Source of the DNA: Alloascoidea hylecoeti
Lineage: Eukaryota
Length of the DNA: 64,000 nucleotides
Direction of reading: 5' to 3'
NCBI GenBank assembly: GCA_001600815.1
Contig: BCKZ01000006.1
Span: forward strand, 544,450 to 608,449
Shown here: piece by piece, positions 34,801-54,921 of the stretch
Position numbering within the stretch: position 1 is the stretch's first letter
Layout: the number at the start of each line of letters is the position of its first letter
Translations under genes and position numbers: made by a program
The notes under the pieces: generated by a model
Databases searched by the model: none
What the model saw: the letters and a program-made list of their open reading frames with translations, nothing else
Told to the model about the DNA's origin: nothing

Positions 34801-34874
34801 TATACCGTAGTGCTCGGGATATGGTGGTGTCCACCAAATCTGTTAAAGCACCATATCCCGAGCACTACGGTATA
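34801..34874. mobile_element. 74-bp MITE / internally deleted Tc1-mariner-superfamily element
   Basis: Perfect 26-bp inverted repeat TATACCGTAGTGCTCGGGATATGGTG (34801-34826) / CACCATATCCCGAGCACTACGGTATA (34849-34874) with a 22-bp spacer. The TA ends are compatible with a TA target-site duplication. Confidence 0.65.
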
Positions 34875-49450: not shown

Positions 49451-50779
49451 ATGAAGGGCAAGGAAATCAGAATTGGCACTCTGTTGATCCTGGACACAGT
49501 CTTTTTCTTCCTTGAAGTCATAATTGGCTATTCAGTCCATTCGTTAGCTTTGATTGCAGATTCGTTCCACATGCTTAATGATATATTCTCACTTGTTATT
49601 GCGTTATGGGCTGTTCGGGTAACAAAATATCGGAGCCCCAACGCCGAGTATACTTATGGATGGCAGCGAGCGGAAATCCTCGGTGCGTTGGTTAATGCCG
49701 TGTTTTTATTGGCTTTATGTTTCAGCATTGTAATTGAGGCCATTCAAAGGTTCTTTGAACCTCAAGAAATTAAAAATCCCCAGCTTATATTGATTGTTGG
49801 AATTACAGGACTAATTTCGAACTTCGTTGGGTTATTGCTATTCCATGAACATGGCCATGGTCATTCACATTCACATTCCCATTCCCACGGTACTGCTGGA
49901 AATTCTCATAATCATGATCATAAGCATGCACACAATTTAGAAGAACAACATCACGGAGAGGATTTTCTAATTCCTGATTTAGAACAAGGTGGGCATATGG
50001 AGCCTGACCTCCCTGATGTCATCGTCAATCAAGTTGCTGATGAAAGATCAGCTTTATTAAGATATCAAACATCGCCCTATCATAGACGTGAATTATCTCA
50101 TCATCAAGAAGCAACGTCTTCAACCCCTGAACAAAAGACTTCAAAATCTTTGAATATGCGTGGGGTGTTCTTACATGTTTTGGGGGATGCTTTAGGAAAT
50201 ATCGGTGTTATAGCGACCGCCCTGTTTATCTGGAGAACACAATACTCATGGCGGTTTTACACTGATCCTATCGTTTCTCTGTTTATTACTTTGATTATTT
50301 TCTCAACAGCTTTACCACTGTGTCAAGCAGCATGCAAGATTTTACTTCAGGCTACCCCAGAATCCATTGATACCGAAACGGTACATCAGGAAATTGAAGC
50401 TATAGCAGGAGTACATTCAATTCATGATTTGCATATTTGGATTTTAAGAGAAAATATGTTCATTGCAAGCCTACATATTGCTGTTAGCAGTGATCCTAAT
50501 GAATTTATGACATTGGCTAAAAAGATTCGTGTTGTTTTACACAATTACGGAATTCATTCAGCCACAATTCAACCGGAATTCACAGATGCTCAATATTTAA
50601 CAGATCGAGAGGATTCAAACACTGATGCTTCCTCTGACATATCAGGTCCCCATGATACCCGAAGACAAGATTCTTGCTCAACGTTACGACGATATGCTGC
50701 TACAAGTGAGGAATTTGATGAATGTTTAGTAGATGCTGAATTGGTGAGATCAGATCACTGTCCCAAAAACAAATCATAA
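49451..50779 (+). CDS. ZRC1: Vacuolar Zn/Co CDF transporter (Zrc1/Cot1)
   Basis: SLALIADSFHMLND, YTYGWQRAEILGAL, His-rich loop, LNMRGVFLHVLGDALG, HDLHIW, GIHSATIQPEF. Confidence 0.95.
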   Translation: MKGKEIRIGTLLILDTVFFFLEVIIGYSVHSLALIADSFHMLNDIFSLVIALWAVRVTKYRSPNAEYTYGWQRAEILGALVNAVFLLALCFSIVIEAIQRFFEPQEIKNPQLILIVGITGLISNFVGLLLFHEHGHGHSHSHSHSHGTAGNSHNHDHKHAHNLEEQHHGEDFLIPDLEQGGHMEPDLPDVIVNQVADERSALLRYQTSPYHRRELSHHQEATSSTPEQKTSKSLNMRGVFLHVLGDALGNIGVIATALFIWRTQYSWRFYTDPIVSLFITLIIFSTALPLCQAACKILLQATPESIDTETVHQEIEAIAGVHSIHDLHIWILRENMFIASLHIAVSSDPNEFMTLAKKIRVVLHNYGIHSATIQPEFTDAQYLTDREDSNTDASSDISGPHDTRRQDSCSTLRRYAATSEEFDECLVDAELVRSDHCPKNKS

Positions 50780-52071: not shown

Positions 52072-52142
52072 GCGTTAGTGGTTTAGCGGTAAAATTCTTC
52101 GTTGCCATCGAAGAGCCCCCGGTTCGACTCCGGGCTGACGCA
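52072..52142 (+). tRNA. tRNA-Gly (GCC)
   Basis: Acceptor stem GCGTTAG/CTGACGC, anticodon arm CTTCG-TTGCCAT-CGAAG, T-loop GGTTCGACTC, and a downstream T-run terminator. Confidence 0.95.
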
Positions 52143-52736
52143 TTTCTTTTTTGCTTTCCGGGCGAAGCGGTCGGAGACTCAAGAAGAAGGAAAAAATTGA
52201 ATGTAATAGAGTTTTCAAGTGCTCAAAATACTTCATATCATAAATGATGAAAGTTTTTAAACCCAAACTTTAAAGATCAATTGCAACATTTTGCACTTAA
52301 ATAATATTTTCAATGCAATTTACCTAATATGGAAGTCGCCTATAAGCCTTGGAGCCTTATAAATTATGGCCAATTAAAAAAATTTACACTTTGGAGCATC
52401 AATCCGTATTAAGCGCTTTGAAAGATGAACCTGGTGTATATATTGGTTACTAAATGTGAGTACCCGAAGATTAATAATAAAAGAGTAGATTGTTATATGA
52501 TCACGGGGTAGATTTATTTGATGGTACAGCTGGACCCAGATTTTAACTAGCAGACCTTTACTATTTGTATATTTGGTATATATTTAGAAAAAAATCACAT
52601 TTTATTATCAAAATCTTTATTGTCAGTTTTTCGACTTAATACGTAAGAACTATCCAAATAGTAAACATCTGATAGTTAAAATCTAAGAAAATAAAATATA
52701 TCGATCTTTTCAAAAGTTTAAAACATCATTACCAAC

Positions 52737-53093
52737 ATGGCAGCACTTGGAAGCGGTAAACATACTAAGGCGAGGGCACCTCTCGATCAAGATGTAGACA
52801 AATCATCTGTTAAATCTGAAGATAGATCTGTAACTTGGGGAGAAATGCAAGAAATTATGGGAATCAGTGTCCAGATTCAAGCCATACATACTATCATAAT
52901 TGATAAAATTGACTCTATGAACAATCAATTAGGTGAAAAAATTGAGTCAATGAATTCCTCCTTCACCGAAAGACTAAACAAATTAGAAGGAACATCAAAC
53001 TCCGGTGCAGCAATATACCACACCAAAAGAAAATGTAAATATTATAAACTGCCACTGAATATTCTACAAGGCCTTAAATGGTTTCTAAAATAG
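52737..53093 (+). other. 118-aa ORF of uncertain status, possibly a retroelement gag/ORF1 relic
   Basis: ATG start in AAC context, low-complexity N-terminus, and a short coiled coil (IIDKIDSMNNQLGEKIESMNSSFTERLNKLE). About 600 bp downstream of a tRNA. No diagnostic motif. Confidence 0.3.
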
Positions 53094-53595
53094 TACATAG
53101 TGTTCCATGAAGCCCAAATATTTCGAAAGAGACATAAATATTATCTCTATTCACTCTTTTACCATGTGGAAAGCTCACCTATTGCAATCTCTGCCTTGCA
53201 ATAAACTTTTATAAGGAGATTCCAAATGTGCTCAAATCTTAATACAAGATAATATATGGAAATATAAACTAGATATATGAAAACTTAACTTTGAATATAT
53301 AGGTTACATAAAAATGGAGTTACCAATAAAAAGATGATTCAATATGTGCTTGATGGAGCTAAAGAGCATAAAAATGTATTGATATTGTACTATAATTATA
53401 ACCTTCGAATTTCTTCCAGTCAGAATTATGATATAAGTTTATAATGGTATGATTGTAAAGAATTCAATTACCGTTATCATAAGTCGAGATTGAGTGTGAT
53501 TATAATTGTAAAAAGTGTGTAATTAGCCATAGTTCAGATTTTGATGAGAACATTTCCAATTACAATTTTTTATTTCCAATCGGTGCTGTTTAGCA

Positions 53596-53787
53596 TTAGC
53601 AGGAAGAACAAGAACCACATTTGCAAGCCTTTGGGCAGGAGCAATCTTTTGGATTCTTGCAGGTTCCAACACAAGGAGGTTGAGTATCCACTGGCTTGGA
53701 ACAGGAAGAACAAGCATTGCAATTACATGATTTTTCGCAAGTACAACTTTCTGGATTGGTGCAAGACCCAACACAAGGAGAAACCAT
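53596..53787 (-). CDS. Metallothionein (63 aa, 16 Cys), copy 1
   Basis: MVSPCVGSCTNPESCTCEKSCNCNACSSCSKPVDTQPPCVGTCKNPKDCSCPKACKCGSCSSC: CxC motifs, no aromatic residues, no His. Confidence 0.9.
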   Translation of the reverse strand: MVSPCVGSCTNPESCTCEKSCNCNACSSCSKPVDTQPPCVGTCKNPKDCSCPKACKCGSCSSC

Positions 53788-54025
53788 TATTAATAAGAAT
53801 AAAGATGTAGATAGTTATAGTATATTATTGAGAATTTTCAATTGGATATAATCCGAATAATTTGAATTGATGTGAATTTAGAGGGTCGACATTAGAAGGG
53901 GGGAATCGACAAGTATTTATATTCTTTGGTTATATATTTAAGCTTGAATTATATCTATGGAATTACCAATTCTGCATTAATGCCTATATAACTATTTTAG
54001 GAAATCGAGGAGTGTTTCCCTTAAG

Positions 54026-54083
54026 CAGCCAGAAAGTTTATTCTCGAAGCAGAAGTATTGAAGTCTATACCCTTTCAGGCTGA
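54026..54083. promoter_or_regulatory. Inverted pair of Ace1/Amt1-like metal-response motifs in the bidirectional MT promoter
   Basis: TTCAGGCTGA (54074-54083, +) fits HTHNNGCTGD. CAGCCAGAAAG (54026-54036) is a 10/11 inverted copy of CTTTCAGGCTG (54072-54082). Confidence 0.55.
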
Positions 54084-54318
54084 CTGCATGCTCCTGTGTC
54101 TTCAATGAAAATATTTATATAGGCATTAATACAGAATTGGTAATTCCATAGATATAATTCAAGCTTAAATATATAACCAAAGAATATAAATACTTGTCGA
54201 TTCCCCCCTTCTAATGTCGACCCTCTAAATTCACATCAATTCAAATTATTCGGATTATATCCAATTGAAAATTCTCAATAATATACTATAACTATCTACA
54301 TCTTTATTCTTATTAATA

Positions 54319-54510
54319 ATGGTTTCTCCTTGTGTTGGGTCTTGCACCAATCCAGAAAGTTGTACTTGCGAAAAATCATGTAATTGCAATGCTTGTTCTT
54401 CCTGTTCCAAGCCAGTGGATACTCAACCTCCTTGTGTTGGAACCTGCAAGAATCCAAAAGATTGCTCCTGCCCAAAGGCTTGCAAATGTGGTTCTTGTTC
54501 TTCCTGCTAA
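54319..54510 (+). CDS. Metallothionein (63 aa, 16 Cys), copy 2, identical to copy 1
   Basis: Exact inverted copy of 53596-53787. Confidence 0.9.
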   Translation: MVSPCVGSCTNPESCTCEKSCNCNACSSCSKPVDTQPPCVGTCKNPKDCSCPKACKCGSCSSC

Positions 54511-54921
54511 TGCTAAACAGCACCGATTGGAAATAAAAAATTGTAATTGGAAATGTTCTCATCAAAATCTGAACTATGGCTAATTACACACTTTTTACAA
54601 TTATAATCACACTCAATCTCGACTTATGATAACGGTAATTGAATTCTTTACAATCATACCATTATAAACTTATATCATAATTCTGACTGGAAGAAATTCG
54701 AAGGTTATAATTATAGTACAATATCAATACATTTTTATGCTCTTTAGCTCCATCAAGCACATATTGAATCATCTTTTTATTGGTAACTCCATTTTTATGT
54801 AACCTATATATTCAAATTTAAGTTTTCATATTCCTTTTTATTATGGATGATTTAAACAAGTTGCAGCTACCTATAATTATAATAACTTAGTGAACCTCCT
54901 TTGTGCAAACGTGCTCTTAAC

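Follow-up and report, generated by a model that had tools for sequence, protein, structure and literature searches.

The window analysed here is a stretch of 64,000 nucleotides (C6:544450-608449) of the Alloascoidea hylecoeti genome, the assembly of which comprises 24.8 Mb with a GC content of about 30%. Fungal housekeeping genes of the CRAL/TRIO, cation efflux, cyclin and POT families are neighbours in the window of a palindrome that carries two metallothionein (MT)-like genes (Table 1). A ZRC1/COT1-like cation-efflux (zinc transporter) gene is located at 49451-50779, 2.5 kb to the left of the palindrome. Mirrored base-by-base comparison of the two arms, of 724 bp each, confirmed the geometry given in the initial annotation, with no indels and three mismatches (53289/54817, 53975/54131 and 53992/54114) and a spacer of 109 bp; in an alternative self-comparison, the arms are longer by 13 bases that match poorly. 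The sequence of each arm comprises 211 bp 5' of the ATG, a 192-bp coding sequence (CDS) and 321 bp 3' of the stop codon. The two CDS are the same in DNA and are oriented outward from the spacer, as had been claimed, leaving a symmetric intergenic stretch of 530 bp between the genes. Self-comparison of the 64-kb window at E<1e-5 yields, besides the palindrome, no more than two imperfect hairpins, one at 34801-34874 (84% over 74 bp) and one at 52538-52684 (72% over 147 bp), which excludes a chance origin of the palindrome.

Table 1. Features of the palindromic MT locus and its left flank (window positions)
Feature	Position	Strand	Basis or remark
tRNA-Gly(GCC)	52072..52142	+	1.1 kb left of the palindrome
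Mosaic of dispersed-repeat fragments, left flank	52585..53240		36 matches, 2 to its own place
Left palindrome arm, 724 bp	53275..53998		Self-comparison; collinear with the C17 left copy past both arm ends
MT-like CDS, left copy, 63 aa, 16 Cys	53596..53787	-	ORF and self-comparison
Spacer, 109 bp	53999..54107		C17 comparison; single-depth contig in X1 and X3
Ace1/Cup2-like site TTTCTGGCTG	54026..54035	-	-248 from the left ATG; fits HTHNNGCTG, not the final D
Ace1/Cup2-like site TTTCAGGCTG	54073..54082	+	-246 from the right ATG; fits HTHNNGCTGD
Right palindrome arm, 724 bp	54108..54831		Self-comparison; 3 mismatches to the left arm
TATA-like box TATAAATA, -134	54185..54192 (mirror copy 53914-53921, minus)	+	Block conserved at C17; putative function
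MT-like CDS, right copy, same sequence as left	54319..54510	+	ORF and self-comparison

The encoded protein contains 16 Cys, 11 Ser and 6 Lys among its 63 residues, with no aromatic residues and no His. The cysteines form two 8-Cys units, at residues 5-29 and 39-63, with the same spacing, C-x3-C-x5-C-x-C-x3-C-x-C-x2-C-x2-C. All features of the MT superfamily signature, as worded in the excerpt of PMC5447758 (small, Cys-rich, CxC/CxxC clusters, few aromatics, no His, Ser/Lys-rich), are found in this protein. Metal binding and a copper-type metal preference are predictions from the sequence. The Cys spacing of each half presumably resembles that of the Fungi-I MTs of Neurospora and Agaricus, although the latter consist of a single unit with about seven Cys, whereas each half of the present protein has eight. 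In the excerpt of PMC13107397, the Cys count of Neurospora and Agaricus is given as 7 and that of Heliscus as 8. There was no match to an MT family in Pfam at E<=1, the word-index search for sequence homologues returned no candidate, a separate search of 1.84 billion representatives gave 0 matches, and the PDB sequence search likewise gave 0 matches; given that small genes are often left uncalled, these results do not show that the family is missing elsewhere. The nearest Atlas clusters are metallothioneins (score 0.80-0.82, to be taken as leads only). A metagenome scan produced 114 pattern matches and one tblastn hit; the latter falls within EGF-like repeats of a protein of 1963 aa and was discarded. 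DNA of the organism is also present in a wood-decay metagenome.

Four copies of the MT gene are encoded in the genome, two at the C6 locus and two on C17, the latter pair being a new fact that escaped the initial annotation. The C17 genes (434675-434863, minus strand; 436162-436350, plus strand) also form a head-to-head palindrome, with arms of ~650 bp, identical across 434520-435141 save one N at mirrored places, and a spacer of ~700 bp. MT copies are the same within each locus and different between the loci: the C6 arms are 99.6% identical to each other, as against about 77% between C6 and C17. Comparison of the CDS between the two loci yielded dN of 0.087 versus dS of 0.545, with 16/16 Cys kept, showing that this is a real gene under purifying selection. 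We considered C17 as a homeologous copy of the window and rejected this possibility, as synteny across 40 kb is confined to the MT unit. The C17 pair is nested in a convergent inverted pair of ADH genes, in the order ADH, MT, MT, ADH (C17:430388-438434). The ADH copies are 99% identical only from 16 bp past the ATG of the shorter gene to the stop codon and are unrelated outside; one of them has an N-terminus longer by 49 aa, which to us reads like a mitochondrial presequence. Near-identity limited to the coding part of diverged paralogues is the product expected of gene conversion. The ADH genes look like old paralogues with homogenized CDS, likely the cytosolic and mitochondrial forms.

We compared the region 52400-54170, covering the left flank, left arm and spacer, with 4 of 10 sequencing runs (X1-X4), representing three samples and three studies. 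X1 and X2 come from one sample and may be the source of the assembly; X3 and X4 are not marked as a possible source. In the runs, one contig represents the arm interior; its depth, compared with the flank, is 132.6 versus 59.5 in X1, 37.5 versus 20.2 in X2, 17.9 versus 9.5 in X3 and 12 versus 9.3 in X4, that is, ratios of 2.2, 1.9, 1.9 and 1.3, with depth providing no exact copy number. In both X1 and X3, a 217-bp contig extends over the spacer and both inner arm ends with 0 differences; in X2, the spacer contig is present as two pieces, and in X4, one contig switches strand at 53974/54131. Each of the four runs also yielded a second outer-junction contig, which in X2 has a loose end that fits the right flank of the palindrome. 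These contigs can be joined in one way only, as flank, arm, spacer, inverted arm and flank; they do not fix the orientation of the spacer relative to the flanks. The palindrome is real and present in three samples; rather than the single copy with half depth over the arms that the initial annotation named as a refuting result, what was recovered is an arm depth of 1.3-2.2 times that of the flank, together with the spacer and both outer junctions. That a single gene was folded into a false palindrome during assembly is extremely unlikely. In favour of such an artefact, short-read assemblies collapse arms of this kind, mirrored N in the arms on C17 and C3 are signs of collapsing in the present assembly, and the whole structure is spanned by no contig. 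Against it, the spacer contig links the inner ends of both arms with opposite orientations, there are two distinct outer junctions, and increased arm depth was seen in runs from three studies, two of which are not marked as a possible source. The assembly puts N at mirrored places of other arms (on C17, 8 of the 9 N in 40 kb) and none in the C6 arms, so that the interior of the latter looks truly identical. With respect to the left flank, positions 53030-53240 match ~30 other places in the genome, and contigs from elsewhere fall on 52928-53143 in the comparison with the runs. The 118-aa ORF at 52737-53093 probably represents what is left of a repeat.

The spacer had been described as short and unique. 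It is indeed short; wholly unique it is not, because its left 65 bp (53999-54063) are 85% identical to the inner promoter that lies inside both C17 arms (0/2000 shuffles), a match that identifies this part as the ancestral promoter. The right 44 bp (54064-54107) have only an exact 11-mer in common with the ancestral promoter (9/20000 shuffles), located on the strand of the right gene, 25 bp from the arm edge versus 27 bp on the left, and when this half is aligned locally with that promoter, the match is not significant (243/2000). Nor is the overall self-complementarity of the spacer halves (699/2000 shuffles; folding z -0.22). The possibility that the whole spacer is a decayed palindrome was abandoned, having failed the global shuffle and folding tests, with only the 11-mer test holding. 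In place of the one central element originally proposed to drive both genes, the spacer contains two mirror-image Ace1-like sites, one for each gene (Table 1), and both MT genes may use both sites.

The Ace1/Cup2 consensus is given as HTHNNGCTGD in the excerpt of PMC5234253. All four MT promoters contain HTHNNGCTG, with the final D in one of the four, and none contains the other form of the site, TC(T)4-6GCTG; the loose consensus HTHNNGCTG is common, with 52 occurrences in the window versus 41.7 expected. A 10-mer, TTTC[AT]GGCTG, which was defined after being seen, is found upstream of 4/4 MT genes, at -245, -245, -246 and -248; there are four occurrences in 887 kb, one per MT gene, and 69 in 24.8 Mb. 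It is absent from six other copper-related promoters, namely, those of two Cu/Zn-SOD genes, a copper ATPase, two small HMA genes and the Ace1-like gene, where only background HTHNNGCTG matches were detected (9 in 6 kb). The genome carries three copper-fist genes, of which the one on C12 encodes 11 Cys within residues 11-80, in CxxC/CxC clusters. Such Cys clusters are described for the N-terminus of Ace1/Amt1/Crf1/AceA in the excerpt of PMC5447758. Typed by this Cys pattern, the C12 gene encodes an Ace1/Crf1-type copper-fist factor.

The best explanation overall, and on balance a probable one, is that the locus is a functional head-to-head pair of copper-type MT genes that is old, conversion-maintained and Ace1-driven. 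Excess Cu(I) would activate the Ace1-type factor, which would bind both spacer sites and drive both genes outward, and expression of both genes would double the output of the 16-Cys metal buffer; jointly, we consider these two steps likely. It appears quite likely that the pair is old, its arms being kept alike by arm-to-arm intrachromosomal gene conversion. A new mutation in one arm would be either copied to the other arm or erased, with conversion operating best in the arm interior, whereas the innermost parts of the promoters would have escaped conversion and decayed into the present spacer, the binding site excepted. The ~100-bp spacer would keep the inverted repeat largely stable.

The old age of the pair and its upkeep by conversion are suggested by the combination of identity within the locus, divergence between the loci and the CDS-only identity of the ADH pair, a comparison that involves two paralogous loci and the ADH pair in one genome and from which the age of the C6 pair is inferred. 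Conversion is further favoured because the arm mismatches occur near the ends only, all three at most 25 bp from an arm end (chance 3e-4, a figure biased by the definition of the arm ends), and because the site is kept outside the arm. Thus, the near-identity of the arms is better read as conversion upkeep rather than as proof of recent duplication. In X3 and X4, two arm variants (53514 and 53835) are present at full depth on the collapsed contig, along with three variants in 920 bp of the flank, a weak hint that both arms changed together; the Logan contigs are unphased and drop alternative alleles, so that an arm-specific variant could look the same (by our estimate, with a chance of about 1 in 9). 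The inverted duplication originally proposed as the origin of the MT pair is borne out by the identical divergent genes in mirrored arms. Of the claim that they constitute a metal-detoxification cassette doubling the dosage from one central element, the gain in dosage is plausible, and the central element falls away.

It is rather unlikely that the second copy is a neutral by-product, that is, a passenger kept by conversion, without dosage selection, in a genome that makes and tolerates palindromes. We surveyed inverted repeats in 914 kb of this genome, in five stretches, of which 800 kb were not chosen for MT. The latter contain a palindrome at C3:408727-410575 (1849 bp; arms of ~915 bp around a centre of ~25 bases, mostly N), each arm of which encodes an identical, outward-pointing 237-aa acidic orphan ORF, as well as a 554-bp inverted pair on C17 (97%, 12 kb apart) and a 236-bp hairpin on C10, all of which would be expected of such a genome; two further hairpins, of 132 and 359 bp, are found in the sequence flanking the C17 MT pair, and conversion alone suffices to keep both CDS intact. 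Against a mere passenger, the same gene is paired at both loci, and the site of the right copy has been kept outside the converted arm amid changed bases, suggesting selection on the expression of that copy.

The main rival of an old, conversion-maintained pair is a young duplication, in which a single gene was copied from C17-left to the vicinity of the tRNA gene and later doubled by fold-back or template switching, with C17 doubled independently. Beyond the arm ends, collinearity with C17-left is limited to the left C6 copy, where it holds on both sides, the flanks of the right copy matching nothing at C17, and the arm boundaries differ between the loci; two separate duplications also fit these observations. 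The lack of significant complementarity between the spacer halves, the repeat graveyard in the left flank and other young-looking palindromes in the genome, such as that on C3, point in the same direction. However, a recent event leaves unexplained the second Ace1-like 11-mer, which is found beyond the arm, in register and on the strand of the right gene, as well as the clustering of mismatches at the arm ends, the X3/X4 variants on the collapsed arm and the CDS-limited identity of the ADH pair, and we consider it unlikely.

A broader reading would be that this lineage tolerates long, closely spaced palindromes genome-wide, as an ordinary, self-repairing form of gene duplication similar to the Y palindromes, and that the MT-like protein would define an undescribed, two-unit, 16-Cys type of fungal metallothionein; both parts jointly seem doubtful. 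The tolerance part draws on the MT palindromes (twice), the ADH pair and the C3 orphan with almost no spacer, and the genome is palindrome-rich only relative to general knowledge of other yeasts. Weakened hairpin processing might be the cause; loss of Sae2 itself is improbable. No match to SAE2/CtIP was obtained in the genome with the Pfam model or a motif pattern, in searches that had no positive control in a genome with introns. MRE11, which also has introns, is present (C20:372598-376125), with its nuclease-domain motifs recognizable across the exons.

Palindrome instability has its model organisms in the budding yeasts, which are known to gain more metallothionein by way of direct tandem arrays. 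Recombination between inverted repeats is 300-fold lower with a spacer of 100 bp than with one of 12 bp, and with a spacer of 200 bp, rearrangements are down 20-fold (excerpt of PMC10164571). A Ty pair spaced by 280 bp is stable in wild-type yeast (excerpt of PMC7999016). As far as these excerpts go, the 109-bp spacer is not in the most fragile class. The initial annotation also envisaged the cassette as a seed for palindromic amplification under metal stress, which found no support in the runs, the arm depth being about two-fold or less in 4/4 of them, with the same junctions and none known to be metal-stressed. Such amplification is highly improbable here. In its favour, MT genes are known to be amplified, for instance, S. 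cerevisiae CUP1 and C. glabrata MT-IIa with more than 30 copies (excerpt of PMC5812535), inverted repeats can act as seeds when single-stranded or without Mre11/Sae2 (excerpts of PMC10164571 and PMC7999016), and SAE2 was not detected in the above searches; against this stand the depth, the 300-fold effect of a 100-bp spacer and the presence of MRE11. Moreover, an amplifiable MT array is a variable direct tandem array, and what the genome contains is four genes, with an inverted pair at this locus.

In Y. lipolytica, the copper-regulated bidirectional promoters are those of the MT pairs. Such promoters are reported in the excerpt of PMC9835291, and MT1/MT2 (chr A) and MT3/MT4 (chr C) are assigned to fungi-IV family 11 in that of PMC13107397. 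To judge from these excerpts, the layout described here resembles the Y. lipolytica pairs most closely, each species having two loci with an adjacent pair of MT genes, four copper-type genes in all (copper-induced in Yarrowia), and an Ace1-type factor (Crf1 in Yarrowia). By contrast, the family 11 MTs are characterized by a central CCC, a conserved His and a long Cys-free N-terminus, none of which is found in the present protein, and the two genes of a locus lie in long, identical arms here, unlike in Yarrowia, where we infer from the His position that MT1 groups with MT3 and MT2 with MT4, across the loci. CUP1 and C. glabrata MT-IIa similarly provide additional MT copies, which serve copper resistance and are controlled by Ace1/Amt1 (excerpt of PMC5812535), but as tandem arrays of variable copy number, whereas the present arrangement is a fixed inverted pair at each of two loci. 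Excerpts of PMC9966917, PMC11109602 and PMC12995575 contain nothing on MT gene layout, and our literature search, thin on subscription journals, did not bring up any yeast described as having an MT pair that is identical and palindromic.

With regard to upkeep, the closest counterparts are the inverted repeat of the C. elegans hsp16 genes and the human Y palindromes, as far as the excerpts describe them. The hsp16-1/hsp16-48 repeat was reportedly described by Russnak and Candido in 1985. For this repeat, gene conversion was favoured over recent duplication (excerpt of PMC3966223); as in the present case, small stress-inducible genes are contained in identical inverted modules around a short unique centre (416 bp), with diverged flanks. 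The differences are that the animal modules measure 1.9 kb and hold two genes each, compared with one gene per 724-bp arm, a 109-bp centre with putative activator sites and a second, diverged palindrome available for comparison here. The human Y palindromes P1-P8 share the gene-bearing arms and intrachromosomal conversion (excerpt of PMC7999016), but are far larger, carry testis genes and reside on a non-recombining chromosome. Conversion between inverted stress genes is a mechanism already known from animals. The two stable inverted MT pairs, with spacers of 109 bp versus ~700 bp, offer a natural test of spacer length, conversion tracts and promoter selection, and the 530-bp intergenic stretch is a candidate for a compact bidirectional promoter that copper would induce. 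More broadly, the question arises why so many palindromes are kept in the A. hylecoeti genome.

Several further observations were made along the way. An exact TC(T)4GCTG site of the Ace1 type is located ~370 bp upstream of an HMA-domain match in C7:501548-504718, a gene that looks like a SOD copper chaperone. At C10:377972-387840, there are three related 196-aa genes, two of which form a convergent inverted pair (92%) with a 2.7-kb gap. As for the C3 palindrome, a decayed relative is found at about 400860-401270. Finally, isolated hairpins of 132-359 bp, 74-94% self-complementary, occur at C17:433778-434136, C17:440915-441046, C10:220999-221234 and C3:433214-433494, and may represent fold-back scars or miniature elements.
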